This document shows positions 2,867 to 63,448 of a stretch of 64,000 bases of DNA, one piece after another. Origin of the DNA: an uncultured Actinomycetes bacterium (GTDB lineage: Bacteria > Actinomycetota > Actinomycetes > Streptosporangiales > Streptosporangiaceae); the NCBI GenBank assembly GCA_963808295.1, contig CAWEFP010000022.1, forward strand, positions 111,464 to 175,463. Direction: 5' to 3'. Each line of letters starts with the position of its first letter. Position 1 is the first letter of the stretch. The notes under the pieces were generated by a model. The model had not been told where the DNA came from. It saw only the letters and a list, made by a program, of their open reading frames with translations, and ran no database searches. The position numbers were made by a program, and so were the translations under genes.

Positions 2867-4501
2867 TCATTACCTCCCTCGCGGGCGCTTCGCGTGGTCG
2901 TGCCGGAGGCGCGCAAAACATCAAAGCGGGAGGCTGGTCCTCGGCGCCGGGACACCGCAACGGCCGCAGGCGTGCGTCGTGCCGGAGCCGCGCGGCAGGC
3001 GGCGGCGAAGCGGGCGGCGGCGCCCGGGTAACCGGCCCAGTGGGTGTGCAGGTACGACGCGTGCACGGCACCGCGGACGTGGCCTTCGCGGCGAACAGGG
3101 TGGGCGCTGAGGCTGCTGGGGCCATTGGGGCTGCGCGGGAGCTGGCGGGAGCCGCCAGGCGGCGGGGTCGCCGTGGTCCGGGGTGACGGCCGTGCGGTGG
3201 AACTCGTGCGCGCGGACCACGTCGCCGGCGGCGGCGAGCACGGAATCGGTCTCGGCGCGGGCCTGCCGGTAGCCGAGCGTCAGCCGGCCGGTCATGGCCG
3301 CGTCGGCCGGGAGGACCCCGCACATGGGCTGGCCGTCCAGGGACCGCGCCAGGTACAGCAGCCCCGCGCACTCGGCGGCGATCGGTACGCCCCGGGCGGC
3401 GGCCGCGGCCACCTCCCGGCGCAGCGGCTCGTTGGCGGACAGGTCCGCGGCGTGGACTTCCGGGAAGCCGCCGCCCAGGATGATCCCGGCCGTGCCCTCG
3501 GGCAGGCGCTCGTCGCGCACCGGGTCGAACGCCGCCACCTCCAGCCCGGCCGCGGCGAGCAGTTCGGCGTGCTCGGTGTAGCTGAAGGTGAAGGCGGCGC
3601 CGCCGGCGATCGCGACCACGGAGCCGGCGGACACCGGGAACGGCCCGGAAGCGGCGGGGACCGGGGGCGCCCCGGAACGGGAGGACACCGGGAACGGCCC
3701 GGAGCCGGCGGACACCGGGAACGGCCCGGAAGCGGCGAGGGCGCCGGCGGGGTCCCAGGGCGGGCCGGGGAGCGGGGCGGCGCCGCGGGCCAGCGCGAGC
3801 AGGCCGCGCAGGTCGCAGGACTCGCGGACCAGGGCGGCGAGCCGGTCCATGGTGTCGGCCGCGGCAGCGGAACGTTCGGCGGCGGGGACCAGGCCCAGGT
3901 GCCGGGACGGCGCGGCCACCTGGGCCGAGCGGCGGATCGCGCCGTAGACCGCGATCCCGGCCGTGGCGAGGGCGTCGCGCAGCAGCCGTTCGTGCCGGTC
4001 CGACGCGACCCGGTTGAGGATCACCCCGGCCACCGCGGTACGCGGGTCGAACCGGGCGAAGCCGGCCGCCACGGCGGCCACCGAGCGCCCCATCGCGGCG
4101 GCGTCGATGACCAGCACGACGGGCGCGCCCAGCAGCCGGGCGACGTGCGCGGTGGAGCCGAAGCCCGGATCCCCCCCTCCCCGCACCCGTCGCCCCGCAC
4201 CCGGGTCGGTGCCGTCGAACAGGCCCATCACGCCCTCCACGACGGCGACGTCCGCGTCCCGGGCGGCGTGCGTGAACAGCGGGACGATCCGGTCCTCGCC
4301 GCACAGGAACGGGTCCAGGTTCCGGGCCGGGCGCCCGGTGGCCAGCGCGTGGTAACCGGGATCGATGTAGTCCGGGCCGGTCTTGTGGCCGGACACGGTG
4401 AGCCCGGCCGCCCGCAGCGCGGCCATCAGCCCGCACGCGACCGTGGTCTTCCCGCTGCCCGAGGCCGGGGCCGCGATCACGAGCCGGGGGACGGCTACCA
4501 T
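2863..4501 (-). CDS. cobB: cobyrinate a,c-diamide synthase (CobB/CbiA); frame break near 3066-3160 and an internal tandem-repeat insertion
   Basis: ORF 2921..4501 reads [51 protein letters not shown]...GVMGLFDG. The conserved C-terminal [20 protein letters not shown] is in a different frame (ORF 2863..3066). Confidence 0.85.
3620..3740. repeat. about 27-bp tandem repeat inside cobB (GPFPVSAGS-type peptide units)
   Basis: The unit gccggcggacaccgggaacggcccgga recurs about 3 times. The protein reads [38 protein letters not shown]. Confidence 0.8.
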
Positions 4502-7261: not shown

Positions 7262-7470
7262 CCGGGTCTTCGCGCCCGTAGCCGGTCATACCGGCGGCCG
7301 GAGTCTCCTGGCTCCCGGATCGGTGCTCGCCCTCGCCTTCCCGCCGCGGTGGCGGCGGTGGCCTCGATGAGGGGTTACTCCCCGGTTACAGTTGCGCGAC
7401 AGCCCCGGATTCGCACCGGAGTTCCTCTGCATACCGCCTCGGCCCAGCATGACACATTTACCGAGGTGCC
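7262..7470 (-). promoter_or_regulatory. cobalamin (B12) riboswitch leader of the chlI-cobO-cobB-cobI-cobM-cbiD operon
   Basis: The minus-strand RNA contains AGGAACUCCGGUGCGAAUCCGGGGCUGUCGCGCAACUGUAA (the GGUG..AA..CC / CGCAACUGU core). A B12-box-like GGGAGCCAGGAGACUCCGGCC follows, just upstream of the ATG at 7246. Confidence 0.7.
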
Positions 7471-11753: not shown

Positions 11754-12569
11754 TCAGGCGGCGAGGCCGATCAGCTGGCCCAGGTCGGCGACGGCACGGT
11801 CGAAATACGCGGCGGTATCGGTGACGACGTTGTTGAACTGGCCGAACAGCTCGAAGCTGATGACCCCGAATACTCCGGCCCAGGCCGTCAGCGCCCCGAC
11901 CGCGGTCTCGTCGCTGACCCCCGGCAGGACGCTGTCCCGGAGCCGCCGGCGTCCTCGGACAGCGCGTTCGGCATCGGCGGGTTGCCGCGGCGCCGGGCAC
12001 GAGTTCGCGCGTTCGCCGGGCACGAGTTCGCTGTGCTCGCGTTCGCTGTGCTCGCGTTCGCCGTGCTCGCGTTCGCCGGGCAGGAGTTCGCCGGGCTCGC
12101 GTTCCCCGGGCGCGAGTTCGCCGGCCGCGTGGGCGTCGCTGATCAGCCGGCCGAAGACGGCGGCGGACCGGGCCGCGGGGCCGATAGTGTCCGGCGGCGC
12201 CTGGTACCCGGGCACGGGCGAACCGTAGATCAGCGCGTACTCGTGCGGGTGCGCGAGCGCCCAGGCCCGGGCGGCCCGGCACGCCGCCCGCCACCGGCCC
12301 GGGTAGTCGTCCCGCCGGCACTTTGCGTCGGCGTCCTCGACGGCCTGGCCGATGGCGTTGTAGCCGTCGATGATCAGCGCGGTCAGCAGCTCGTCACGGC
12401 TGGCGAAATACCGGTAGATCGCGGAGGAGACCATGCCCATGTCCCGGGCCACGGCCCGAAGCGACAGGGCGGCGGCACCATCCGCCGCGAGCTGGGTGCG
12501 GGCGATATCCGTGATCTCGCGGGTAATCTCCGCGCGGACCCGTTCCCGCGCCGTCCTGCGTGCCGGCAC
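11754..12569 (-). CDS. TetR/AcrR family regulator with an internal 15-bp repeat insertion
   Basis: The N-terminal HTH reads ITDIARTQLAADGAAALSLRAVARDMGMVSSAIYRYFASRDELLTALI. The C-terminal domain is interrupted by GEREPGELLPGEREHGEREHSEREHSELVPGE. Confidence 0.8.
   Translation of the reverse strand: MPARRTARERVRAEITREITDIARTQLAADGAAALSLRAVARDMGMVSSAIYRYFASRDELLTALIIDGYNAIGQAVEDADAKCRRDDYPGRWRAACRAARAWALAHPHEYALIYGSPVPGYQAPPDTIGPAARSAAVFGRLISDAHAAGELAPGEREPGELLPGEREHGEREHSEREHSELVPGERANSCPAPRQPADAERAVRGRRRLRDSVLPGVSDETAVGALTAWAGVFGVISFELFGQFNNVVTDTAAYFDRAVADLGQLIGLAA
11995..12125. repeat. 15-bp tandem repeat (about 8 units) inside the TetR gene
   Basis: ctgtgctcgcgttcg / ccgtgctcgcgttcg / ccgggcaggagttcg units in a strict 15-nt register. 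Confidence 0.85.
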
Positions 12570-14230: not shown

Positions 14231-14415
14231 GGGCCCGCGCGGTGGCGGAGGGCCCCGTGGCGGAGGGCCCCGTGGCGGAGGGCCCCGTGGCGGAGGGCCC
14301 CATGGCGGAGGGCCCCATGGCGGAGGGCCCCGCGGCGCGAGGGCCCCCGTGGGCCCCGGCGGGAGGGCCCCATGGCGGAGGGCCCCGTGGCGGAGGGCCC
14401 CGTGGCGGAGGGCCT
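14231..14415. repeat. 15-bp tandem array (about 12 units) between the glyA stop and the MFS start
   Basis: The ggcggagggccccgt unit has point variants (cat/cgc). At least four of the six reading frames carry a long track ORF across it (14028.., 14170.., 14189.. and 14141..14542). Confidence 0.9.
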
Positions 14416-22260: not shown

Positions 22261-22797
22261 TCAAACCGTCCTAATAGCACCCCGCGGACGGCCTAAGGGG
22301 GTGGCATTACCAGCCGCATCGTCGAATTCGCCTTTTCGGGCGCCATCCAGAAAGCACTCCCACTCGTTCCGGTCGAACACGAGGACCCGGCGGTCCGGAT
22401 CACCGGCGACCCGCATCAGAATCCAGTCCCCGTCGCGTCGTTTCGCCGCCCTGTGCACACGGCTATCCCCGGACGCCCCGGGCCCACCAGATGTCCCGGG
22501 CACACTGGGCGCCCCGGAAACGCCCGCTACGCCGGGCACCCCGGAAACGCCCGCACGCCGGGCACCCCGGGAACGCCCGCCACCCCGGAGCGGGGGCCAC
22601 CCCGGGAGCGGGGGCCACCCGGGAGCGGGGGCCACCCCGGAAACGGGGGCCACCCCGGGAACGCCCGGGGCCCCGAAAAGCCCAGCGGTCACGCGAGCAA
22701 AAGCAATCTCAATGGCACCGGCGCCCTCTCCCGAACGCTGCCATTCCTGAGCGTCAGGATCGATGCCGAGTTCCTCGACCGTGGGCTTGGCGGTCAC
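22261..22797 (-). CDS. DUF397-like protein split by a ~90-aa repeat insertion
   Basis: AQEWQRSGEGAGAIEIAFARV, then a GVPGVAPVSGVAPAPGWPPLPGWPPL...GVSGVPGVAGVSGAPSVPGTSGGPGASG insert, then DWILMRVAGDPDRRVLVFDRNEWECFLDGARKGEFDD. The GTG start overlaps the methyltransferase stop (GTGA). Confidence 0.65.
   Translation of the reverse strand: MTAKPTVEELGIDPDAQEWQRSGEGAGAIEIAFARVTAGLFGAPGVPGVAPVSGVAPAPGWPPLPGWPPLRGGGRSRGARRAGVSGVPGVAGVSGAPSVPGTSGGPGASGDSRVHRAAKRRDGDWILMRVAGDPDRRVLVFDRNEWECFLDGARKGEFDDAAGNATPLGRPRGAIRTV
22470..22675. repeat. GC-rich tandem repeats (two unit types) inside the DUF397-like gene
   Basis: cgccgggcaccccggaaacgcccg occurs about 3 times and ccaccccgggagcggggg about 4 times. 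On the coding strand these are TTCCGGGG..CCCC mini-hairpin units. Confidence 0.85.
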
Positions 22798-26700: not shown

Positions 26701-27649
26701 CGAACTCGGGGATGGCGACCTGCATGGCCGCGTCGATCGGGCTCAGGCCGCCGCCCGCGTCGTGCCACTGGGCGCGCGATGAGGTCAGGCAGAGGCCCTG
26801 GATGAGCGGGACGCCCAGCCCGGCGAGCGCGCCCGCGTCCCAGTCGCCGTCGGTGCCCGCGTCGGCGGCGACCGAACCCCCGGCCGCGAGGACCGTCGTG
26901 ATGATGACGCTGGCCGGGCGGAGAAGTTCGGCCAGGCCGGGATCGGCGGCCCGGAGCGAGGAGCAGTACACCGGCAGCGGTGTCGCGCCGTGCTCGGTGA
27001 TCGCCGCGCAGAGCGTGTCGACGAAACCGGTGTTGCCCGAGAGCTCGTGCGCCCGGTAGAAGATCACCGCGACCGTGGGCGGCGCCGTGCCGGGGCTGTC
27101 GCCCGCGGCGGGGCCGACCGGCGGGCGGGGGCGGGATTCGCCGGGGCGGGATTCGCCGGGGCGGGATTCGCAGGGGCGGGATTCGCAGGGGCGGGGTTCG
27201 CAGGGGCGGGGAGGCGGTGCAGGCCGTAGGCGGGGCGCGGGCTCGGGCGGGGCGAAACCCTGGCCGGTGAGCAGCACGGTGTCGGACAGGAACGCCGCGA
27301 GCTCGCGCAGGTTGGCGGGGCCCTCCTCGCGCAGGTAGCCGAGCGCCTCGGCGGCCACCCCGGCCGGGACGGTGGACAGCGCCATGAGTTCCGCGTCGGG
27401 TGCCGATTCGCCGCCGAGCGCGACCAGCGGGATCCCGGTGGCGCGCAGCGCCGCGACCCCCGCGGGCCACGCCTGGCGCCCGCCGAGCAGGCGCAGCACG
27501 ACGATGTCCGCCCCGTCCGTCAGCGCGGCGAGCGGTCCCGGCTCATCGAGCGAGATACGCACCGGGTTCGCGGCCCGGTAGCCCGCCCCCGAAGCGCGCG
27601 CGGCGAGGAGCTCGGTATCGGCGGTGGAAAGGAGCAGGATCGTGGCCAC
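23710..27649 (-). CDS. cobN: cobaltochelatase subunit CobN; interrupted by a repeat-rich segment with frame change (25053-25400) and carrying a second in-frame repeat
   Basis: From the GTG at 27649: VATILLLSTADTELLAARASGAGYRAANP...IFYRAHELSGNTGFVDTL...HLGKHGTLEWLPGKG...DPGEGTQAKRRAHAVIVDHL. The C-terminal 447 aa (ORF 23710..25053: VLQFACAEVVPRLAATTGEI...GGYIPAGPSGSPTRG...) is in another frame. Confidence 0.85.
25165..25300. repeat. degenerate gtggcggcgggag-type repeats in the cobN interruption
   Basis: gtggcgggagcgaagtcgtcggcgggagtccgggacgtggcggcgggagtggcgggagctccgc...gttctgtggcggcgggacgaagttctgtggcggcgg. Confidence 0.65.
27128..27210. repeat. 15-bp tandem repeat x5 inside cobN (CESRP/GESRP units)
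   Basis: cgggattcgccgggg x2, cgggattcgcagggg x2 and cggggttcgcagggg. The protein reads PCEPRPCESRPCESRPGESRPGESRP. Confidence 0.9.
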
Positions 27650-28856: not shown

Positions 28857-29801
28857 CGTCGTGTCTCCCTGACTGGCTATCACCACTAGCAGTGCGCTGG
28901 CCGTCTTGACCTCAGGCACGGTCGTGGCACGCTACCCCGGCCGCGTCCTGCGGGTCCGGACGGTGTTATGTTATGCAAGATGCACGTGCATTCGCATGGG
29001 CTTTCGCATACTCATCCGCACAGTCATCCGCAAGTGCCGCGGCGAGTGCCCGCGCACGTGCCACATGGGGCGTTGACGGAGGGCTCCGACCAGAAAATTC
29101 CCGAATACTCCCTCCCGCGGGGACACCGGCCCGCGTTTATGCCAGCCGCCAATAAGTCGGCCTAATAGCGGCTTCTAATAAAAATTGGGTATCACCCAGA
29201 TGAACTTTCGTCAACATGAGGCGTGCGTACAACCGAATAAGGCCGCAGCGTCCTGATAGTTGCGCATTAACGCATTTCGGACGCCGGAGTATGAACGGGT
29301 GACATTGCCCGGATGACCGGAAACCCCGCACCCGGCCGCACGAGCGTGCAGGCCGCGACGGGGTGGCCGCCGCACAGTCCCCGGCAGCCAGACCCGGTGA
29401 CGGCATGGCGCAGGGCACCGCGACGCAGGGCCAGCCCGCCAGGTGTTGACTTATGAAAGAGACGGCCGGGGAGAAAGTTGCTACCTGTCGGCCAGCATGA
29501 CGACCTTCCGGCACGGACCGGGGGAAAATCACCCTGATTTCGGTCGGCCCAGGGCCGGTATGCCGGCTCCCGGGGTAGGCGCATAACGCGGCGCGCAATG
29601 GAAGTGTCCAAAAAGGAAATCATTTACTAGAATGGCAAACCGGATTGGCTGATCGGCAAAGATAGACCAGTTCTGACTCTCTGCCACGCTGCATGCCCGG
29701 TGTGATCGATGCTCGCCGCATAGCTGGTGACCAGCCAGCCCGCAGGCTGGAAAATGCCCGTGCCAGGCCGGCCGGATGGCATGTGCGAGCTGGGGTAGCT
29801 A

Positions 29802-37588: not shown

Positions 37589-41245
<3,657 letters not shown>

Positions 41246-41448
41246 GCGCTCCCGTCGTGTCTAGCTGTCACGCTGTTCACGCATTGCGCGCCCCACCGGC
41301 CCCGCGCGTCCCAGCAGCCCCATAGCCGGAGCGGCGGCGCGGCGGCGTACCGGCGCCGGCGTTTCCGCAGTATCTGCGGAAGAGCCGGCGCCGATCATGG
41401 CGGGAGACGCCGCGGGCGCGGGCAGCGGCCCGGCCGGACTGGGCGGGG

Positions 41449-42751
41449 TCATTGGGGGCGCTCCATGGCGGCGCAGAACTCCTCGAAGAGGCCGGCGGCG
41501 TCGTGCGGGCCGGGGGCCGCCTCGGGGTGGTACTGGACGCTGAACACGGGGCGCTCCAGCATCCGCAGGCCCTCGACCACGCCGTCGTTGAGGTTGACGT
41601 GGCTGACGACCGCGGGCCCGTAGGGGGTGTCGAAGGGCTGGCGGGCGGCGGCGGGGATGTGCGCCCATTCGGTCCCGGTGCCGGGGAGCGGCTTCCCCGG
41701 GGCGTGGCCTTCCCCGCGGGGTGGCCTTCCCCGGCGGGGCATGGCTCTCCCCGGCGGACTGGTCCCCGGCGAGGGTCACCCCGGGCAGGGCGGCGGCGAA
41801 GCCGTGGTTGTGGCTGGTCACCTGGACCCGGCCGGTGGCCAGGTCCATGACCGGCTGGTTCACGCCGCGGTGGCCGTAGCGGAGCTTGTAGGTGTCCAGG
41901 CCCAGCGCCCGGCCGAGGATCTGGCTGCCCAGGCAGATCCCGAACACCGGCAGGCCGGCCTCCAGCACGCCCCGCATCGCCTGCACCGCGTAGCCGGCCG
42001 CGGCCGGGTCACCGGGGCCGTTGCTGAAGAAGACCCCGTCCGGGTCCCGCTCCAGGATCGTGGCGGCGGTGGCGTCCGCGGGCAGGACCAGCACCTCACA
42101 CCCGAGCCGGGCCAGGTAGCGCGGGGTCGAGGCCTTGATGCCCAGGTCCACCGCGGCGACCCGGTACCGGGCCGGCGTCCCGGCCGGCGGGCTGACCGTG
42201 TAGGGCTCGGAGGTGGTGACGGTCCGGGCCAGGTCGGCGCCGACCATTCCCGGGCTGGCCAGCACGCGCTGCAGCAGCGCGGCCGGGTCGGCTTCGGTGG
42301 TGCTGATCGCCGCGCGCATCGCGCCGTGCTCGCGCAGCCGCCGGGTGAGCGCGCGGGTGCCGCGGACCGCGATGCCGGTGACGCCCTGGTCGCGGAGCTC
42401 GGCGTCCAGGTCCCGGGCCGCCCGCCAGCTCGACGTCAGCCGGGCGGGCTCCCGCACCACGTAACCGCCCACCCAGATGCGCCGCGATTCCGGGTCCTCG
42501 TCGTTGACGCCGGTGTTGCCGATGTGCGGGGCGGTCATGGCGACGATCTGGCGCGCGTACGACGGGTCGGTCAGCGTCTCCTGGTAACCCGTCATGCCGG
42601 TGTTGAACACCATCTCCCCGAAGGTCTCGCCCTCCGCGCCGAATGAGCTCCCGCGCAGGACCGTTCCGTCTTCGAGGACGAGCAGGGCCGGCGGTGCCGC
42701 ACGGCCGTCGGCGGCCTGGCCGGCGGCGGCCGGCGCGGCGTCCGCGGTCAT
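41449..42751 (-). CDS. carA: carbamoyl-phosphate synthase small subunit; repeat insertion plus frame change near 41690-41790
   Basis: [44 protein letters not shown]...[12 protein letters not shown]...VTSHNHGFA is followed by a [20 protein letters not shown] insert. The real C-terminus, [14 protein letters not shown]...[16 protein letters not shown], is in ORF 41449..41742. Confidence 0.9.
41685..41770. repeat. ggccttccccg.gggg-type tandem repeats inside carA
   Basis: gcttccccggggcgtggccttccccgcggggtggccttccccggcggggcatggctctccccggcgg. Confidence 0.8.
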
Positions 42752-47462: not shown

Positions 47463-48157
47463 CGCGTCCTCTCTTCCGTGCGGAACCGTGCCAGGCGAGG
47501 CACTTCCCGCTACCACGCCTGGCACGGGGTCCGGCCGCCCGAGGGGGGTCAGGCGGCCGGGGCCTTCACACATCCAGTCGAACACAGTTTCGGCTGTGTG
47601 TCCAGTCCGTTTGTACCTGCGTTCGAATGTAGCTGGGGGGTCCGACATTCCGGCCGGCCCCGCGGGCGCGGGGCGCGGGCGCGAGGCGGAGCCGGCCGGC
47701 GGGGTCAGCGGAACGGCCACGATGGCGCGGTCGTGGCCGCCATGACGTCGACGATGACGCCACCGTGGACGTGGCGAGATCCCAGGGGCGGGGATTTTCC
47801 GGGACGTTCGTCCATGGCCGAACGCGGACATGTCATGACATGGTTACGCGGTGTTTCCGGGAGTCGCCGTTCTGCCGGTTACGCCTGGTCCGGGGGATGT
47901 GCGCCCGTTCGCCGAAGATCCACGGGGAGGGCTACCACCGCGCACAGGTCGCAACTAAATGACCCGTTGCGTCGTCATTTATAGCGAAACCTCACCGGCG
48001 GTTCCCAGGGAACCCCCAGCAGGGCCACTGCCGGGACCCAGCGGGCGGCGGCCGGGGAACCGCACCGGAGGCACGGGCCGGCCGGTGAACGTTGGGCCTG
48101 AGATTGCGCGGCGGCAGCACGCGCCGAACGATCGCGACGTTGGAGGACTTATCCGGC

Positions 48158-50716
48158 ATGGGATCGCCGACGGGGGAAGCGGGGGAACCACCCCCGCACA
48201 CGGGAGAAGGCCGCGCGCACACGCGAGAGGGCCGCACACATACGGGAGAAGGCCGCGCGCACACGGGAGAACAGCAGGCGCGATCACGCGGGCCGTCACG
48301 CCGCACGCTGCTGGCCGGGGGGCTGGCCGGGGCGGCCGGCGCGGCCGTGATCCCGCTGACCCTGGACCGCGGCGGGGCCAGGCAGGCCCCCGGCGACGCC
48401 GCTGACCGGCCCGGGTGGGAACACTCCACGGCGCGGGATCGCCCGGTCACGGCGCTGCAGTACCCGTTCAACACCGGCTGGGTGTTCGGCGAGTACGCCC
48501 GCGGGTCCGAGCAGCCCGGGTATGACGACACGCAGCTCACGCCGGTCACGCTGCCGCACTGCGTCACCAAACTGTCCTGGCAGAAGTGGAACCCGGCGGC
48601 GTGGCAGCGCGTCTGGGTCTACCGCCGGTCCTTCGACGGCACGGGGCTGCGGGGCGGCCGCGTGCTGGCCGACTTCGACGGCGTGATGGTCAACGCCACG
48701 GTGATCATCAACGGCCGGACGGCGGCCAGTCACAAGGGCGGCTACCTGCCGTTCTCGGCCGAGCTGACCGGTTTGCTGCAGCCCGGCGACAACGTGCTCG
48801 CGGTGGTGGTCGACGCCCGTTGCATCCCGGTCCCGCCGGAGGTCCCGGACGCGCCGGGCACCGTCGACTTCCTGCAGCCGGGCGGGATCTACCGTGACGT
48901 CCGGCTGCGGCTGCTGCCGGACATCTACCTGTCCGACGTGTTCGCCCAGCCGGTCAACGTGCTGACCGCGCACCGGAGCGTCGCCATCGGTTGCACCATC
49001 GACGCTGCCGGGGCGCCGGCCGCGCCGGTGCGGATCACCGCCGCGCTGGCCCAGGGCACCCGGAAGATCGCCACGGTCTCCCGGACGCTGTACGAGGTCC
49101 GCGCGGGCCAGACGGTGGCCGCCCTGTCGCTCACCGGCCTGGGCGACATTGGGCTGTGGTCGCCGGCCAGCCCCGAGCTGTACGACCTGACGACAACCGT
49201 GTCGGTCCCGGGCTCCGGCACGCATTCGGTGCGGCAGCGGATCGGGTTCCGCGAGGCGGCGTTCCGGCCGGACGGCTTCTTCCTGAACGGCGAGCGGCTG
49301 AAGATATTCGGCCTGGACCGGCACCAGCTCTTTCCCTACGCCGGGATGGCCATGCCCGCCCGCATCCAGCGCCGGGACGCCGAGATCATCAAGAACGACT
49401 TCAACTGCAACATGGTGCGCTGCTCGCACTACCCGCAATCGCCGCACTTCCTGGACGCGTGCGACGAGCTGGGCCTGATGGTGTGGGAGGAGACGCCCGG
49501 CTGGCACCATATCGGCGGCGCGGCGTGGCAGGACATCGTGCTGGCCAACGTGCACGACATGGTGGTCCGGGATCGCAGCAGGCCATCGGTGATCATCTGG
49601 GGCACCCGGCTCAACGAGACCAAAGATTACCCCGGCCTGTACCGCCGGGCCCGGCAGATCGCGAAGGACCTGGACGGCTCGCGGCCCTCGTCCGGGGCGA
49701 TGGACCGCCACAGCACCGAATTCTGGGACGAGGACGTCTTCGCCTTCAACGATTACCACCTGAACGCGGCCGGCCACTACCGGCTGCTGCCCCCGCTTCC
49801 GAACGTTCCGTACCTGGTCACCGAGTCGGTGGGGGTGGAACTGCCGAAGCCGCGGCACTACCGCTGGACCGATCCCCCGGCGCTGCTGGCCCGGCAGGCT
49901 GTCTACCACGCGCAGGTGCACGACATCGCGCAGTCGGATCCGCGGTACGCGGGACTGCTCGCCTGGGTCGCGTTCGACTACGCCTCGCTGCAGGGGCCGG
50001 GCGGCCAGAGCATCAAGTGGGCAGGCGTCGCCGACGGGTTCCGGGTCGCCAAGCCCGGCGCCGCCATCTACCTTTCGCAGGTGGATCCCCGGGTCCGGCC
50101 GGTGGTCGTGCCGGTGTTCTTCTGGGATCTGGCGGACGGGGCGGCGCCGCGGGGACCCGGCCCCAACGCGATGCTGGCCAGCAACTGCGAGCAGGTGGAA
50201 GTCTTCATCGGCGGTGACCACGCCGGGACCGGGCGGCCCGTGCTGGACGCGGAACTGTACGGCCAGCTCGCCTACCCGCCGACCCTGGTCGACCTCACCG
50301 TGTCCCGGAACGACCATCCCGAACTGCGCATCGAGGGCTATCTCGGCGGCAGGCAGGTCGCGGTGGTCCGGATGTCCTGCGATCCGGCCGGCGACCGGCT
50401 CGCGATGACGGCCGACGACGCGGCGATCACCGGCGACGGTTCGGACGCCACTCGCGTGGTGTTCCGCGCGGTCGACGCCTACGGCAACCAGCGCAGATAT
50501 ACGTCCGGTGAGGTCAAACTGCACGTGGCGGGGCCCGCCGAGCTCATCGGGGACAACCCGTTCCCGCTCGGCGAGTACGGCGGGCTCGGCGCGGTCTGGC
50601 TGCGCTCGCAGCCGGGCCGGTCGGGCCCGGTCACGGTCATCGCCGACCACCCCGATCTCGGCCGCGCCCGGGTCATGCTCACGGTCACGCCGGCCGGCCG
50701 CCAGCGCCTCGACTGA
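48158..50716 (+). CDS. secreted glycoside hydrolase family 2 (TAT signal)
   Basis: SRRTLLAGGLAGAAGAAV twin-arginine signal. FGLDRHQLFPYAGMAMPARIQRRDAEIIKNDFNCNMVRCSHYPQSPHFLDACDELGLMVWEE and IIWGTRLNE match the GH2 TIM-barrel motifs. Confidence 0.85.
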   Translation: MGSPTGEAGEPPPHTGEGRAHTREGRTHTGEGRAHTGEQQARSRGPSRRTLLAGGLAGAAGAAVIPLTLDRGGARQAPGDAADRPGWEHSTARDRPVTALQYPFNTGWVFGEYARGSEQPGYDDTQLTPVTLPHCVTKLSWQKWNPAAWQRVWVYRRSFDGTGLRGGRVLADFDGVMVNATVIINGRTAASHKGGYLPFSAELTGLLQPGDNVLAVVVDARCIPVPPEVPDAPGTVDFLQPGGIYRDVRLRLLPDIYLSDVFAQPVNVLTAHRSVAIGCTIDAAGAPAAPVRITAALAQGTRKIATVSRTLYEVRAGQTVAALSLTGLGDIGLWSPASPELYDLTTTVSVPGSGTHSVRQRIGFREAAFRPDGFFLNGERLKIFGLDRHQLFPYAGMAMPARIQRRDAEIIKNDFNCNMVRCSHYPQSPHFLDACDELGLMVWEETPGWHHIGGAAWQDIVLANVHDMVVRDRSRPSVIIWGTRLNETKDYPGLYRRARQIAKDLDGSRPSSGAMDRHSTEFWDEDVFAFNDYHLNAAGHYRLLPPLPNVPYLVTESVGVELPKPRHYRWTDPPALLARQAVYHAQVHDIAQSDPRYAGLLAWVAFDYASLQGPGGQSIKWAGVADGFRVAKPGAAIYLSQVDPRVRPVVVPVFFWDLADGAAPRGPGPNAMLASNCEQVEVFIGGDHAGTGRPVLDAELYGQLAYPPTLVDLTVSRNDHPELRIEGYLGGRQVAVVRMSCDPAGDRLAMTADDAAITGDGSDATRVVFRAVDAYGNQRRYTSGEVKLHVAGPAELIGDNPFPLGEYGGLGAVWLRSQPGRSGPVTVIADHPDLGRARVMLTVTPAGRQRLD
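48195..48275. repeat. 21-bp tandem repeat x4 in the N-terminal region of GH2 copy 1
   Basis: cacacgggagaaggccgcgcg units; the protein reads HTGEGRA HTREGRT HTGEGRA HTGEQQA just before the RR signal. Confidence 0.85.
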
Positions 50717-50808
50717 CCGCCCGGGGACACGCACCCCCTCTCTCGCACGATCGTGACACTCCGAAGTAAATTAATTACTCAGAGTTGCAAACGGTGCGGG
50801 AGGTGACG

Positions 50809-53289
50809 ATGAGCCACGCCCGGCGGGAATCCGGCCTTCCCCTTCCCGCGGCGGAAGCCTCTCCGTCGCGGCGGGCGGTGCTGCGCGGCGGGGCGTTCGG
50901 CGGCGTGGCGCTGCTCTCGCTGGCCGCGGCGCCTAAGGCGCACGCCGCGCCGCGGCCGGAGCAGGCCGCGGCGTGGCCGCGGCAGGCCGTGCGCACGGCC
51001 GCGAGCGGGACGGCCGCCACCCCCGCACGCCAGTACGACTTCGGCCAAGGCTGGCTCTTCGGCGGGGCCTACCTGGCCGGCGCCGAGCAGCCCGGCTACC
51101 CCGACGACGGGTTCACCCGGGTGACGCTGCCGCATACGGTGACCCCGCTGTCGTGGGCCAACTGGGACCCCACGAGCTGGGAAAACGTGTGGATCTACCG
51201 CAAGCACTTCGCGGGGTCCGACGTCCGCGGCGGCCGGGTGTTCGCCGACTTCAACGGCGTCATGGTCAACGCGGCCGTGGTCATCAACGGGGTGACCGTC
51301 GCCACTCATGAGGGCGGCTACCTGCCGTTTTCGGCCGAGCTGACCGGCCACCTGGCCGACGGCGACAACGTGCTCGCGGTCATCGTCGACGCGCGCTGGC
51401 TGGACGTGCCGCCGGACAACCCGCCGAGCGGAACCGCGTCGGTGGACTACCTCCAGCCGGGCGGCATCTACCGGGATGTCACGCTGCGGGTCGTGCCCGA
51501 GGTCTGCATCCGCGACGTGTGGGCCAGGCCCGTCAACGTGCTCACCGCGGACCCGGCGCTCGAGGTTCAGGTCACGCTGGACGCCGCGAGCGTGCCGGAC
51601 GGCACGCTTCAGGTCGCCGTCCAGCTCCTGGACGGAGCCCGCGAGGTCGCCGCGGCCGGGATGGCCGCGGCGGTGGTAGCCATCGGCGCGACCGTGCTGC
51701 AGCTGACCCTGACCGGGCTGGCCGGCGTGGTGCTCTGGTCACCGGACGCGCCGAAGCTGTACACCGTGCGGACGACGGTCTCGCCCGTTACCGCGCCGCC
51801 GCACACCGTCGACGTCACCACCGGGTTCCGGCAGGCGGCGTTCCAGCCGGACGGCTTCTACCTCAACGGGAAGCGGCTGGAGATCTTCGGGCTGAACCGG
51901 CACCAGCTCTTCCCCTACCTCGGCATGGCGGCGGGCGCGCGGCTGCAGCGGCGGGACGCCGAGATCCTCAAGAACGAGCTGAACTGCAACATGGTGCGCT
52001 GCTCGCACTACCCGCAGTCGCCGCACTTCCTCGACGCCTGCGACGAGCTGGGCCTGATGGTGTGGGAGGAACCGCCCGGCTGGGCGTACACCGGCGACGC
52101 CGCCTTCGGGCAGATCGTGCTGCAGAACGTGCACGACATGGTGGTCCGCGACCGGAACCGCCCGTCGGTCATCGTCTGGGCCACCCGGCTCAACGAGACC
52201 GCCAGCGCCGTGGACCTGTACGCGCAGACCCGGCAGCTGGCGTACGACCTCGACGGGACCCGGCAGACCACGGGCGCGATGTCCAGCTACTCGCTGACCG
52301 GCTGGGCCGAGGACGTCTTCGGCTACGACGACTACCACGCGGTGGACGGCAACGCGACGCTGGAGCCGCCGCTGCCGGCCGTTCCGTGGCTGGTCAGCGA
52401 GGCGGTCGGCGCGCTGGACGGGTCGCCGCTCTACCGCTGGACCGATGCCGGGGCGGTGCTCGCCGAGCAGGGTCAGATGCACGCCCAGGTGCACAACATC
52501 GCCCAGTCCGATCCCCGGTACGCGGGCGTGCTGGGGTGGTGCGCCTTCGATTACGCCTCCCTGAACGGGGGGAGGAGGATCTGGGACAACCTGAAGACGC
52601 CGGGCGTGCTCGACACGTTCCGGGTGCCGAAGCCCGGCGCGGCGTTCTACCGCTCGCAGGTGTCCCCGGCGGACCAGCCGGTGATCCTGCCCATGTTCTT
52701 CTGGGATTTCGGTCCCGGGTCCCCGATCGCCGGGCCCGGCCAGGGCTCGATCATCGCCACCAACTGCGACCGGCTCGACATCTTCCTGGACGGGCAGCAC
52801 ATCGCCAGCACCACCCCGGACGTCACCGATTACGGGAACCTGGCTCACCCGCTGGCCTTCGCCGACCTGACGGTGGACGGGGCCAGCCGGCCCGAGCTGC
52901 GGATCGACGGTTACGTGGCCGGCGCCCTGGCGGCGTCGGTGCGCATGTCCGCGGACACCACCCGCGACCGGCTGTCCCTGGTGGCGGACGACACCTCGAT
53001 CCGGGCCGATGGGTCCGACACCACCCGGCTGACGTTCCGCGCGCTGGACGCCTACGGCAACCAGCGGCCCTATGTGGACGGCGCGGTGTCCCTCAGCCTG
53101 GTCGGCCCCGCCATTCTGGTGGGCGATAACCCATTTCCGTTCGGTATATACGGCGGCGTCGGCGGCGCGTTCGTGCGTTCGGTGCCCGGCCGGGCCGGGC
53201 TGGTCACGATCACGGCGGAGCACCCGGGGCTCGGGTCCGCCGCCACGCGGCTCACCGTGACACCCGCGCCCGGCCGCGCGTTCCTCTGA
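50809..53289 (+). CDS. secreted glycoside hydrolase family 2 (TAT signal), tandem paralog
   Basis: GGGAGG RBS then ATG. SRRAVLRGGAFGGVALLSLAAAPKAHA signal. FGLNRHQLFPYLGMAAGARLQRRDAEILKNELNCNMVRCSHYPQSPHFLDACDELGLMVWEE. Collinear with copy 1. Confidence 0.85.
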   Translation: MSHARRESGLPLPAAEASPSRRAVLRGGAFGGVALLSLAAAPKAHAAPRPEQAAAWPRQAVRTAASGTAATPARQYDFGQGWLFGGAYLAGAEQPGYPDDGFTRVTLPHTVTPLSWANWDPTSWENVWIYRKHFAGSDVRGGRVFADFNGVMVNAAVVINGVTVATHEGGYLPFSAELTGHLADGDNVLAVIVDARWLDVPPDNPPSGTASVDYLQPGGIYRDVTLRVVPEVCIRDVWARPVNVLTADPALEVQVTLDAASVPDGTLQVAVQLLDGAREVAAAGMAAAVVAIGATVLQLTLTGLAGVVLWSPDAPKLYTVRTTVSPVTAPPHTVDVTTGFRQAAFQPDGFYLNGKRLEIFGLNRHQLFPYLGMAAGARLQRRDAEILKNELNCNMVRCSHYPQSPHFLDACDELGLMVWEEPPGWAYTGDAAFGQIVLQNVHDMVVRDRNRPSVIVWATRLNETASAVDLYAQTRQLAYDLDGTRQTTGAMSSYSLTGWAEDVFGYDDYHAVDGNATLEPPLPAVPWLVSEAVGALDGSPLYRWTDAGAVLAEQGQMHAQVHNIAQSDPRYAGVLGWCAFDYASLNGGRRIWDNLKTPGVLDTFRVPKPGAAFYRSQVSPADQPVILPMFFWDFGPGSPIAGPGQGSIIATNCDRLDIFLDGQHIASTTPDVTDYGNLAHPLAFADLTVDGASRPELRIDGYVAGALAASVRMSADTTRDRLSLVADDTSIRADGSDTTRLTFRALDAYGNQRPYVDGAVSLSLVGPAILVGDNPFPFGIYGGVGGAFVRSVPGRAGLVTITAEHPGLGSAATRLTVTPAPGRAFL

Positions 53290-53292
53290 GCT

Positions 53293-53367
53293 GAGGGTTC
53301 CAGGGGTCGTCCCCCTCGGCCAGCAATCGGGGGTTCCAGGGGTCGTCCCCCTGAGCCAGCACTGGGG
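53293..53367. repeat. 37-bp hairpin-containing repeat x2 directly after the GH2 stop
   Basis: GGGTTCCAGGGGTCGTCCCCCTCGGCCAGCAATCGG / GGGTTCCAGGGGTCGTCCCCCTGAGCCAGCACTGGGG. The motif is the same as in the carB insertion. Confidence 0.9.
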
Positions 53368-53448
53368 CGCGAGGGATTCCTGGCCACCTCCGGTGGGTAC
53401 GGGGGAAACTTGACCGCCAAGCGCAGCGCCGCACGAGGAGGTAGCCCG

Positions 53449-54508
53449 ATGGGATGTGAGGTTTCGTGGTTCGCCGCACTGTGCGATGACGATTACGAGT
53501 TCCTTGGTGTGCCGGACCCGGCTCTGCAGTCCAGCTGGGAGCACTGCCGCACGATCGCGCTCGCCGCCGAGGCCGGCGGCTACGACAACCTGCTGCTGCC
53601 GTCGGGATACGCGATGGGCATCGACGCGGTGGGCTTCGCGGCCGGCATCGCCCCGCTGCTGCGGCGCATGCAGCTCCTGGTGGCCGTGCGGATGGGCGAG
53701 ATGTGGGCGCCGCAGCTGGCCCGGCAGCTGGCCACACTGGAGCAGATGCTCGGCGGCCGGCTGCACGGTCAACATCATCTCCTCCGACCTGCCGGGCCAG
53801 AAGCTGGAGTCCGTGCCCCGGTACCAGCGCACGCTGGAGATCATGGGCGTGCTGCGCGACCTGCTCGACGGCAAGCCGGTGGATTTCCGCGGGGAGTTCG
53901 TCGACGTGACGCTCGATCCGCCGCGGCTGCGGCCGAGGGGCGGGTGCCCGCCGTTCTACTTCGGCGGCCTGTCCGAGTCCGCGCGCGAGGTGGCCGCGCA
54001 GGCCGCGGACGTGTTCCTGATGTGGCCGGACACCCTGCCCGGGGTGGCGGCGGTGATCGAGGACATGCGGGCGCGGGCGGCGCGGTACGGGCGGGAACTG
54101 CGGTTCGGGTACCGGGCGCACGTGATCGTCCGCTCCACCGAGGCCGAGGCGCGGGCGGCGGCGCGGCGGCTGCTGTCCCGGCTGGACGCGGAGACCGGCG
54201 AGCAGATCCGCCGCCGGTCGCTCGACACCACCTCGGCCGGGAACGCGCGGCAGCGGGAACTGCGGGAGGTGGCCAACAGCGAGGGGTACGCCGAGCCCCA
54301 GCTGTGGACCGGCATCGGCCGGGCGCGTTCGGGCGCGGGGGCCGCCATCGTGGGCGACCCGGACCAGGTGCTGGCCAAGCTGCGGGCGTACCAGGCGCTG
54401 GGCATGGAGGCGTTCATCCTGTCCGGTTACCCGCACGCGGCCGAGGGCGACCTGTTCGCCCGCCATGTGCTGCCTCATCTGGACCACGGGCCCCTCTTCC
54501 CTCGCTGA
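53449..54508 (+). CDS. ssuD: FMNH2-dependent alkanesulfonate monooxygenase (LLM class); 1-nt frame break near 53761-53766
   Basis: GAGGAGG RBS. MGCEVSWFAALCDDDYEFLG... then, in the second frame, TVNIISSDLPG...PPFYFGGLSESAREVAA...LRFGYRAHVIVRSTEAEARAAARRLLSRLD...LWTGIGRARSGAGAAIVGDPDQVLAKLRAYQALGMEAFILSGYPH. It is collinear with my recollection of E. coli SsuD. Confidence 0.85.
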
Positions 54509-55134
54509 ACCTCCCCCAGATGGGCGTTGCGCGCTGAGGAACGCGTCCGGTGGGGTGGCCTCGGGTCAGACGGGCTGAAGCGGAGGCGGACTTGCCCTGG
54601 CGGGTGGTGCTGGGGCAGCCACCGTACGTGGCCCCTGTGGCCATTGCGACTTTTGCGATACGAGGGGCGGCTGGCCCGGCCGTCCATCGGGATTCGGGGC
54701 GACTAGTCCGCGCATGCTGCGGAAAAGCCGCCCCGAATCCGGCCGGGAGGGTCTGGGGGGCGCGGGGGCGGTGAATGCGGGGGCGCGGGGGCCGGGGGCG
54801 ATGCGGACGCCGGTGACCTCCGCGCCGATGTTGCCCGCGATGCGCCGGATGTCGATGGCCGGGGCACTGGTGGACATGGGTCTCCCTTCCGCAGGGTCGC
54901 GCGGCCCGTCCGGCGGGGCACGCATGGCCGTCTCCCTGAGCAAAACACTAGGGCAGAACAATTGTCAATAATTTAGATAGGTTTTGACGACTAAATACAG
55001 CGGCCCCGGGCAGGGGCACCGCGGCCGGCGGGGGCGCCGCCCGGGCGCGGGAGGCGGCATCCGCCGGGGCCGCTGGTCGGCGCGGGCGGCGGCGTCCATG
55101 GGCACCGGGGGCGGCGTCCCGTAAGCTCAGCAGG

Positions 55135-60162: not shown

Positions 60163-61304
60163 CGGCGCCCGGCCAGGGCGGCGAGGGCGGCCAGGGCGGC
60201 GGCGGTGACCGTGACGGCGCGGGACAGGCGCGCCACGCGGCGGATGTCGCGGGGCTCGGGCGGGCGGCCGTCGCCGAGTTCGGGCCGGTACTGCGGGACG
60301 CCGTGGTAGGCGCTGGCCCCGCCGAGCCGCAGGCCGAGCGCGCCGGCGAAGGCCGCCTCCGGCCGGCCCGCGTTCGGGCTGGGATGCTGCCCGCCGTCGC
60401 GGACGGCGGCGCGCAGCGACCCGCAGGGGCTTCCGCCGACGGCCGGCGCGCAGGCCGCGGCGAGCACCGCCGTCAGGCGCGCGGGGGCCCAGTTGGCCAC
60501 GTCGTCGAGGCGCGCCGCGGCCCAGCCGAACCGCTCGTAGCGCGGTGACCGGTAGCCCACCATCGCGTCCAGCGTATTCACCGCGCGGTAGGCGGCCAGG
60601 CCAGGCAGACCGGCCAGCGCGCCCCAGACCAGCGGGGCGACCGCCGCGTCGCTGGTGTTCTCGGCCACGGATTCCACCACGGCGCGCGCGAGGTCCTTCG
60701 CGCCGAGCTGGTCCGGGTCGCGGCTGCAGAGCCCCGGAAGCATCGCGCGGGCCGCCGCCAGATCGTTGGTATCCAGCGCGTCTGCGGTCCGTTCGGCTTC
60801 ATGGCGAAGCGAACGGGCACCGGTGACCGCCCAGACGGTGGCCGCGACGGCGGCGGCGCGCGGCAGCGGCCGGCCGCGGGTGAGGCGGTGCGCGGCCACG
60901 GCGGGCAGCGCGGCGGCCAGCACGCAGGCGCCGGCGTGCACCGAGCCGCGGCGCCGGCTGTCCGCGTACATGCGCGATTCCAGCCGCGCGGCGGCGCGGC
61001 CGAAGGCGGCCACGGGGTGCCCGCGGCGCGGGTCGCCGAGCAGCGCGTCCAGCGCCACACCCGCGGCCAGGCCGCCCGCCAGCGCCCAGTCCCGGCGCGG
61101 GCCCCGGCCCAGGCGCGGGCCGTGGCCCAGGCGCGGGCCGTGGCCCAGGCGCGGGCCGTGGCCCAGGCGCGGGCCGTGGCCCGGCGCGGGCCGTGGCCCC
61201 GGGAGGGCCAGCCAGCTGGTCCCGCCGAGGGCCAGGAGGCTCGTCCTCGGGAGGGCCAGCCGGCTCGCCGCGTCACCCGGCACCGCCCGGCGCCTGCCCC
61301 TCAC
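60159..61304 (-). CDS. cbiB: adenosylcobinamide-phosphate synthase (CbiB/CobD) with a repeat-encoded N-terminal extension
   Basis: The core reads [22 protein letters not shown]...[49 protein letters not shown]. It is preceded by [28 protein letters not shown]. No canonical start lies between the repeats and the core. Confidence 0.8.
61093..61270. repeat. 18-bp tandem repeat x4-5 plus flanking gggagggccagcc repeats at the cbiB 5' end
   Basis: gcccaggcgcgggccgtg occurs x4 with one 17-nt variant. gggagggccagccagctgg / gggagggccagccggctcg follow. Confidence 0.9.
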
Positions 61305-62281: not shown

Positions 62282-62485
62282 GGGGCTCTCCGCGGCGAAG
62301 GGGCTCTCCGCGGCGAAGGGAGCGCCGGTAACGCCGCCGTCGTGGCCGCACTCCCCGGCGTTCCGCTCCCCGAGCGCCCCGGCGTTCCGCGCCCTCAGCG
62401 CCTCGGCGTTCCGCGCCCTCAGCGGCCCCGGCGTTCCGCGCCCTCAGCGGCCCGGCGTTCCGCGCCCCGAGCGGCCCGGCGCGTT
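62265..62485. repeat. two adjacent tandem arrays (18-bp x3; ~21-22-bp x5-6) at the APH gene 5' end
   Basis: ggggctctccgcggcgaa occurs x3, then ccggcgttccgcgccctcagcg-type units. The block ends in the hairpin TTCCGC-agc-GCGGAA. Confidence 0.85.
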
Positions 62486-63124
62486 TCCGCAGCGCGGAAC
62501 GGGCCTTGAGCGTTTGGCTGCGGTCCAGCAGTTCGCCGGAATGCTCGCGCAGCACGCCGGCGAAGGCCCGGATAAGGTCGAGGCGGTCGGACACCGACCG
62601 GATCTGACGCCAGGCTGTACCGGTGTCATCGGCGTCATCGGCCAGCCCGTCGGGGGGGCTGGCTGCTCCGTCATGCTCCGCCAACGCGTCATCCGGCGCA
62701 TCGGCCCCGGCCTGACGGCTGGTAAGTAAATCCCTAATAGGTGGTTTTTCCACGAACATCATGAAAAGTGACGATAAGCGGTTACTGCCCGAAATTGCTA
62801 GATGTCACTGAGGTAATGGTGAACCCTTTGGCTTTCAATTTGTGTAACTGCAGGCAACACCGACCGCAGGGATCACATTGGCATCTTCAGCTGCCGGGGA
62901 TGCCACTTGCCTCATGTGACCGTTATGGCACCGGGGCACCGGATAGGGACATTCGGCGCACGGGGACGCCCAGCCCAGAATGGTCGGTCGATGCTTGTTC
63001 CGGTCCATTGCGCCTGGGGCTGGGCGACGCGGGCCGAAGCCACGTTCGGCCGGGTTGGGCGAGGTTGGGCGAGGCGCGGGAGCGTGAGATGCTGGAATGC
63101 GCCGGGGGATGCTGAATGGCGTTC

Positions 63125-63215
63125 GGGTCGTGTCCGGTCAGGGCGTCCAGGGCGTGTCCGGGCCGGGCGTCCAGGGAGTGTCCGGCCAAGGATGCGGGGC
63201 GTGTCCGGCCAGGGG
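63125..63215. repeat. degenerate GTCCAGGG.GTGTCCGG-type repeats upstream of the tRNA
   Basis: ggtcgtgtccggtcagggc gtccagggcgtgtccgggccgggc gtccagggagtgtccggccaagg ggggcgtgtccggccagggg. The units resemble the third unit of the carB insertion (TCCAGGGGAGTCGTCCCCCGG). Confidence 0.6.
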
Positions 63216-63322: not shown

Positions 63323-63396
63323 GCGCCCGTAGCTCAGTCGGATAGAGCAGCTGCCTTCTAAGCAGCAGGTCGCAGGTTCGAGTCCTGCCGGGCGCG
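63323..63396 (+). tRNA. tRNA-Arg (anticodon UCU)
   Basis: A manual cloverleaf fold works: acceptor GCGCCCG/CGGGCGC, D arm GCTC-AGTCGGATA-GAGC, anticodon arm GCTGC-CTTCTAA-GCAGC (anticodon TCT), variable AGGTC, T arm GCAGG-TTCGAGT-CCTGC, discriminator G. No CCA is encoded. Confidence 0.9.
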
Positions 63397-63448
63397 CTCA
63401 CCGGAAATCCCAGGTCAGCGACCATATTGGTGTGTCCGCAGTCGACGC

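Follow-up and report, generated by a model that had tools for sequence, protein, structure and literature searches.

What are the two short GC-rich units that stand side by side behind a GH2 beta-galactosidase gene, and why does a similar unit lie within carB elsewhere in the same window (the whole stretch of 64,000 nt analysed here)? The array begins 5 nt past the TGA stop (53287-53289, + strand) of GH2b (50785-53289; GC3 0.95; homologues named beta-galactosidase), the second of two GH2 genes. Read on the - strand, the unit distal to the stop (53331-53367) is AGTGCTGGCTCAGGGGGACGACCCCTGGAACCCCC; its parts are a 5' box, an ACGA-loop hairpin and the tail GGAACCCCC. The unit adjoining the stop (53295-53330, - strand) shares this hairpin, with greater degeneracy at the base of the stem. 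Both are head-to-tail copies of one 36/37-nt unit, and an exact 22-mer common to them, GGGTTCCAGGGGTCGTCCCCCT, is absent from every shuffle of the window, which bears out the proposal of an earlier note on this DNA that they are tandem copies. Most likely, both belong, as decaying copies, to a family of short palindromic repeats, similar to REP, TRIT and RPE elements, that is carried by Streptosporangiales-type actinomycetes. The unit of this family is called the head in the following.

Membership of the family was assessed with an nhmmer profile trained solely on 129 distinct copies from other genomes, which was then run on the window, and with a covariance model run with its filters off. Five window copies are found by nhmmer, confined to carB and to the spacer between GH2b and the gene of a luciferase-like monooxygenase (LLM, 53449-54537), and the covariance model agrees with scores of 63.9, 38.8, 31.4, 16.1 and 15.7 bits. 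Behind GH2b, the distal unit is matched at 53329-53362 (nhmmer E=1e-6; covariance model 38.8 bits, E=5e-6) and the adjoining one at 53295-53326 (E=4e-5; 15.7 bits). The remaining three copies lie within carB (37589-41245, - strand) on the + strand, opposite to the gene. Head 1 (39556-39592) is a perfect copy of the family consensus, GTGCTGGCCCGGGGGGACGACCCCCCGGAACCCCCCG (nhmmer 39556-39593, E=2e-11; 63.9 bits), head 2 (39514-39549) has a CCGA loop and a degenerate tail (31.4 bits, E=1.5e-4; nhmmer 39514-39543, E=0.03), and head 3 (39490-39513) retains the hairpin core only (GGGGGACGACTCCCC; 16.1 bits; nhmmer E=0.06). The kinship between the carB-internal unit and the GH2b units, which had been read from the letters, is therefore upheld by a profile of foreign copies as well as by the covariance model.

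Several other places in the window had been put forward as weaker relatives, and these are not members of the family according to nhmmer, the covariance model and pattern searches. The array next to the tRNA and integrase (63125-63215), the DUF397 array (22500-22665), cobB (41681-41757) and the TTCCGCAG hairpins at 41362-41380 and 62470-62490 give no match with E<1 under either model, the best score in their neighbourhood being 10.3 bits (E=3.6) at 22487-22528. They represent separate tandem repeats with other unit lengths. A common TTCC-GGGG-loop-CCCC module had also been suggested. In the loose form TTCC-N-GGGG-loop-CCCC, the module occurs at four distinct places of the window (six overlapping matches) against 0.12 expected; the array at 22645 is the sole one of these outside the head family, and a search of 246 related loci for the unit of this DUF397 array, TTCCSGGGGTGGCCCCC, gave no match. 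A weak head-like hairpin at 29300-29331 (+ strand; TGACATTGCCCGGATGACCGGAAACCCCGC; 16 bits, E=0.2) may be a decayed relic or a product of chance. Additionally, other short tandem repeats are unusually abundant in the window, mostly with a period divisible by three and many apparently in ORFs (e.g. 14242-14414, 12008-12130, 27128-27210, 61091-61182, 62329-62481, 3619-3737, 48195-48282, 22500-22665 and 41681-41757), and none of these is a member of the head family. A cobalamin riboswitch (85 bits) at 7301-7427 (- strand) and a tRNA-Arg(TCT) gene at 63323-63397 (+ strand) are further features of the window.

The head is about 37 nt long and reads GTGCTGGCC-CGGGGGG-ACGA-CCCCCCG-GAACCCCCCG; the consensus of the genome matches is (G)TGCTGGCC-CGGGGGG-ACGA-CCCCCCG-GAACCCCCCG. 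The conserved core comprises an 8-bp G/C stem, an RCGA loop and a GGAACCCCCC tail, with a looser GTGCTGGCC box on the 5' side. Searching a genome collection with the 20-base pattern GGGGGACGACCCC-N(1-3)-GGAACCC yielded at least 141 matches in at least 120 loci, and a metagenome collection, scanned with the loop left free, yielded at least 125 matches in at least 120 loci. By our own rough estimate, about 10 matches to the 20-base pattern would be expected by chance in the entire collection. The patterns by which every locus was ascertained prescribe a large part of the stem, which biases variation and copy numbers; with this bias, the loop among the listed free-loop copies is ACGA in 80 of 125, GCGA in 36 and another sequence in 9 (RCGA, 93%), and ACGG was found in one of the 125 among the matches listed. 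Conservation extends to a 5' CCC and a 3' CCCG, which the patterns leave unspecified, and the stem position left free by the patterns is G-C in 232 copies, A-T in 17 and half-changed in 6 (A-C 4, G-T 2). This swap is a compensatory change typical of particular lineages, e.g. Actinomadura and Microbispora. The order-wide conservation of loop and tail points to a sequence-specific partner.

Nearly all listed records are soil actinomycete MAGs, many labelled Streptosporangiaceae, and the named ones are almost all Streptosporangiales. The isolates among the matches listed belong to Microtetraspora, Microbispora, Actinomadura, Spirillospora and Actinoallomurus, together with a Trebonia MAG; elsewhere, the matches listed comprise a single one in Allorhizocola, two in Streptomyces and a few short contigs binned in other taxa. 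Several genomes give multiple loci among the matches listed, and about 10 of the listed 120 genome loci possess a second, independent site within 8 kb. The density is roughly one site per 30-80 kb, with two sites in the 64 kb of the window, and by extrapolation a genome would hold 100-300 sites as an order of magnitude. Some element-bearing contigs are found in foreign bins. For instance, the one in a Myxococcaceae MAG (L116) carries the same DUF349 C-terminus plus head as three actinomycete loci (L025, L053, L105), which suggests a binning error, and those in an Acidimicrobiia MAG (L017) and in Propionibacteriaceae MAGs (L024, L042, L074) could be binning errors or real spread. IMG/VR holds one match to the element; head plus D body (a second module described below) gave no match in plasmid and phage collections, where the low-complexity filter of BLAST may hide some.

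The breadth of this distribution bears directly on the thought that GC-rich sequence slipped locally and independently at each place, or that the assembly created the units, with the likeness between carB and the intergenic copies being coincidental. Such an origin might be favoured by the many unrelated short tandem repeats of the window and by the indels in its assembly. However, a model trained on other genomes gives E-values of 2e-11 to 4e-5, chance would explain only about ten matches in the entire collection, and an identical 37-mer is present in hundreds of loci. Moreover, the carriers are not confined to long-read assemblies, as they include short-read-style contigs (k141/NODE-named; Illumina-type L008, L042 and L243) and isolate genomes. 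Slippage or artefact is thus refuted by the E-values of the foreign-copy model and by recurrence in at least 240 loci, and it can hardly be credited any longer. Conversely, at least 240 outside loci, empty and filled sites and in-frame copies support what the earlier note had argued against independent slippage, namely a dispersed family in coding and non-coding contexts and in both orientations.

At least 308 heads were counted at at least 253 sites in 1.68 Mb of sampled loci, and they commonly have one of several hairpin modules (A to D) on their 3' side. Type D is an imperfect hairpin of about 85-90 nt that itself repeats in tandem. Among the matches listed, all 55 adjacent head pairs are direct and none is inverted, with a spacing of 33-46 nt, or of 72-130 nt where a second module lies between them, and direct tandem arrays reach five units. 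The flanking sequence is coding on the 5' side of 61 of 116 heads versus the 3' side of 22 of 116, which fits the polarity of head followed by module.

The carB copies belong to such a composite. By alignment with an empty relative (L121) and a filled one (L122), the insertion spans 327 nt (109 codons; 39459-39785, + strand, opposite carB) and consists of three heads, a linker and two type-D bodies. The linker (39593-39609) and type-D body 1 together occupy 39593-39692 (+ strand), the body being a long imperfect hairpin, ACCGGCC..GGGC-loop-GCCCGG..GGCCGGT...CGCCTCGCCGTAGG, and type-D body 2 (39698-39785, + strand) is a second D copy in tandem. The head-plus-D composite is also present in L021, L025, L029, L059, L066, L099, L102 and L107, and further in L111, L136, L148, L164, L179, L227 and L233. 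The carB array exceeds shuffled sequences in stability (z = -3 to -4). Heads in carB number none in L121, one in L122 and three in the window. The empty site of L121 reads AERVRG-SS-SLDPETLRVAKGAGF, and L122 carries a single head with a D body at the site occupied in the window, with the called gene reading through. The closest relatives are contigs of ENA assemblies ERZ250394xx-ERZ250396xx and a JGI soil metagenome, and the CarB homologues are named Streptosporangiaceae or Trebonia.

The length of the carB insertion is a multiple of three, yet one TGA (39717-39719, - strand), within D body 2, falls in the carB frame. If real, this TGA would split carB at the junction of its two homologous halves. 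The quality of the assembly has to be considered here. Compared with L121, carB has an extra base near 39041, and its frame changes near 40650; the LLM gene has a frame shift near 53750, and exact-protein look-ups for the product of this frameshifted gene gave no match. Contigs of related MAGs carry indels different from those of the window, and MFD-labelled MAGs like those in the genome scan presumably derive from nanopore sequencing. The frameshifts of carB and LLM look like the outcome of an error-prone long-read assembly rather than of pseudogenes; homopolymer lengths, frameshifts and the carB TGA are possibly erroneous, and assembly indels render the lengths of the G/C runs in the units uncertain.

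A second comparison of empty and filled sites is offered by the GH2b-LLM spacer. The order GH2a-GH2b-LLM is kept in three relatives (L243, L244, L245), and the spacer holds no unit in L244 and L245, two in the window and four, more degenerate, in L243. Neither target-site duplication nor terminal inverted repeats are visible in the two comparisons of empty and filled sites (carB and GH2b-LLM). The array at 53295-53367 can be regarded, with good but incomplete confidence, as dispensable DNA, inserted or expanded between the stop of GH2b and the conserved LLM leader. About 80 nt before the LLM start (53368-53448) are almost invariant in the window, L243, L244 and L245, and the GH2b proteins of these four genomes are merely 75-92% identical; the invariant stretch could be a conserved promoter or leader. 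The two GH2 genes (48092-50716 and 50785-53289) are tandem paralogous beta-galactosidase genes with a DNA identity of 73-84% over long stretches. Their pairing is kept in L244 and L245, where both genes are full-length, and probably in L243, the contig of which starts within the upstream GH2 gene.

The two hairpins behind GH2b raise a further question, as Rfam calls a guanidine-II (mini-ykkC) riboswitch in exactly this place (53302-53354, - strand; RF01068, 35.1 bits). Were the call genuine, two ACGA-loop hairpins would dimerise on guanidine and control the downstream gene. The score exceeds the curated threshold of 32 bits, ACGA stands in both loops, and the hairpin cores GGGGACGACCCC are identical to riboswitch stem-loops, this 12-mer being the one employed in structural work on the guanidine-II riboswitch (PMC5486947). 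Tandem heads reproduce the two-hairpin layout and pass the cut-off; the head copies of carB also match RF01068 on the + strand, below threshold. The earlier note had overlooked this identity with the guanidine-II stem-loop, and its suggested Rfam check returns RF01068 and no family dedicated to the repeat.

The surroundings of the hairpins speak against a riboswitch. Of mini-ykkC motifs, 90% are found no more than 33 nt from a Shine-Dalgarno sequence, and the genes concerned form a narrow set (PMC1950547). At 53302-53354, however, no coding ORF follows on the - strand, and the region is antisense to the C-terminus of GH2b, the + frame of which has a GC3 of 0.95. Two syntenic relatives lack the units here and a third has them in degenerate form; unlike the riboswitch, the element is not conserved at orthologous sites. 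They do not stand in 5' leaders: a gene start on the same strand follows at 4 of 116 sites, none with a guanidine-related gene (the four are a flavin monooxygenase, an NB-ARC regulator, a leucyl aminopeptidase and one ORF whose identity is unclear), and among these four heads two are in-frame insertions in the gene. The window loops are ACGA, apart from one CCGA in carB. Family-wide, the loop varies as RCGA, whereas the riboswitch has ACGR; GCGA, with 29% of the listed loops against 64% for ACGA, is outside ACGR, and the variable base is the first rather than the fourth. Furthermore, most family sites have one hairpin (214 of 253, ~85%, among the matches listed), and the two-hairpin layout at 53302-53354 is the product of a tandem duplication, which inflates the weight of the Rfam E-value. 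RF01068 also passes its cut-off in 4 of 18 related loci scanned, which are plain repeat arrays (L020 7852-7902, L120 1934-1984, L056 3616-3670 and L104 6375-6430). The riboswitch is therefore rejected as very improbable. The authors of the motif had cautioned that false positives would become prohibitively frequent with single hairpins (PMC1950547), and the tandem duplication of a look-alike hairpin is what defeats the two-hairpin safeguard. With the cut-off exceeded in the window and in four further loci, riboswitch calls in Streptosporangiales genomes and soil MAGs likely contain systematic false positives.

With the riboswitch set aside, the reading of a repeat family can be followed to the positions that its copies take relative to genes. 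Most copies are outside ORFs, and they point both with and against the adjacent gene. ORFs approach a head from its 5' side in 57 cases; in 27 of them the stop codon falls 11-24 nt ahead of the loop, and for 8 of these 27 it is a TAG that the GCTAGCC variant of the element itself supplies. Heads also lie between convergent genes, for example between DUF349 and relA in L053. In four genomes (L025, L053, L105, L116), a head follows the orthologous DUF349 gene, 1-3 nt past the stop in three of them and 35 nt past it in L053, and the second module is different in each; occupation of this one gene end with differing second modules speaks for long persistence.

Such placement would also be expected of a terminator or 3'-end stabiliser similar to TRIT, which the host selects and keeps at gene ends and which is neither mobile nor selfish. 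The narrow post-stop distribution with an element sometimes supplying the stop resembles TRIT (PMC3152330), and heads between convergent genes, the DUF349 gene end occupied in four genomes and the conservation of loop and stem with compensatory change are all in its favour. However, there is no T-tract and, in the window, no T-tract terminator at the repeat sites, and the stability of the local hairpins at 53290-53372 does not exceed that of shuffled sequence (z = 0.1 to 1.2). Among relatives, the two window sites hold between 0 and 4 copies, the units of L243 are decayed, and direct tandem arrays run to as many as five heads. Copies also lie in frame inside housekeeping and conserved genes such as carB, nadE and hrpA. 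As the main explanation, this host-selected role appears rather improbable, and it is compatible with the repeat family as a secondary effect and remains a live possibility in that capacity.

The in-frame copies deserve closer description. Strong coding signal on both sides of an in-frame site was found at at least 12 of 130 sites. Pfam domains flank the insert on both sides in five of the eight ORFs checked, where it separates two domains: a prolyl oligopeptidase with five 30-residue units (L110), an HrpA-type helicase (L051), NadE (L003), an XDH-type molybdoenzyme (L036) and an ABC transporter (L042). In an NRPS (L076) it is situated inside the Condensation domain, and a MenF-like isochorismate synthase (L088) and FadB (L108) have a domain match on one side only. 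The consensus is free of stops in all six frames and hence encodes loops rich in Gly, Pro, Arg and Asp, with peptides including PGGRPPGTP.

Dispersal, presence/absence and copy-number change, in-frame tolerance and constraint on loop and stem are thus properties of this family in the genomes compared, and from the distribution we infer that it has a propagation mechanism of its own, in keeping with the earlier proposal. New copies would be placed by a sequence-specific agent with hairpin, loop and tail as its recognition signals; its substrate would most likely be single-stranded DNA, by analogy with HUH/Y1 enzymes and REPs. Arrays would then lengthen and shorten via slippage or unequal recombination. 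Selection would retain only harmless insertions, i.e. those past stops, between convergent genes or in in-frame inter-domain linkers, and the transcribed hairpin would probably be nothing but a stable 3'-end structure. The near-identical 37-mer across families and the persistence at the DUF349 site would fit host function or concerted evolution as well. A mobilising gene was looked for, not systematically, between three inverted head pairs (L002, L030, L053; 2.3-4.4 kb apart), and the ORFs there are ordinary genes. The heads of a fourth inverted pair (L036) are situated within and at the end of an XDH-like ORF.

A bolder picture, which we hold as tentative and on balance doubtful, is that of an actively mobile cassette with a dedicated enzyme that would read the RCGA loop and the GGAACCCCCC tail; a still bolder variant would have the ACGA loops form guanidine-dependent kissing dimers as RNA. 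If true, the head would be among the smallest mobile units known, spread across an actinomycete order, and as a stop-free sequence it would repeatedly seed linker peptides in CarB, NadE, HrpA and other conserved enzymes. In practice, the element lends itself to strain typing, and homopolymer errors and mis-assembly concentrate there in long-read MAGs.

The earlier note did not recognise a described actinobacterial element here, which has so far stood. In the open literature, with subscription journals outside this scope, the sequence is unprinted except in the guanidine-II structural work, and nothing was found on a REP or RAYT linked to Streptosporangiales; Rfam has no family for it apart from the look-alike match. 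The family is therefore provisionally considered undescribed, and its standing is best seen next to known systems. It differs from MITEs in that terminal inverted repeats and target-site duplication are not visible at the two sites compared. BOX elements of Streptococcus pneumoniae and MIRU of Mycobacterium are modular, with constant and variable modules in direct arrays that vary between relatives, and MIRU are units of 40-100 bp in intergenic regions of operons. By general description, heads are similar to both in their modular direct arrays and differ in sequence, size and host.

The likeness to REP/BIME and REPIN-RAYT systems is closer. Heads are imperfect palindromes of about 35 nt in high copy, mainly extragenic and mostly just downstream of genes, where they cluster with other motifs; an extrapolated 100 or more sites per genome, long vertical persistence and sharing at the level of family to order are further parallels. 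In contrast, a REPIN is an inverted doublet and a BIME alternates, whereas all 55 adjacent head pairs among the matches listed are direct. Heads also have no GTAG, are frequently inserted in frame in genes and conserve their loop, and no RAYT was seen near the three inverted pairs. TRIT, the Tuberculosis Rho-independent terminator motif of Mycobacterium, comprises about 150 copies of a conserved palindromic hairpin without U-tract, bidirectional, in a narrow window at or overlapping stop codons (PMC3152330). Heads are likewise conserved actinobacterial hairpins concentrated in a narrow window at the stop codon; they are set apart, by description, through another sequence and host clade, their arrays and composites and their in-frame positions. 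Finally, RPE are palindromic repeats of about 100-150 bp, restricted to Rickettsia, which occur in frame in unrelated housekeeping genes, adding a peptide, and also in intergenic regions (PMC10969869). Heads similarly enter unrelated genes in frame, leaving the ORF open, and are intergenic as well. Unlike RPE, they have a unit of 36-39 nt (12-13 residues), are hosted by free-living actinomycetes with large genomes and bear no sequence relationship to the Rickettsia repeats. The family thus extends in-frame palindromic insertion of the Rickettsia type to large genomes of free-living actinomycetes, with a unit of merely 12-13 codons.
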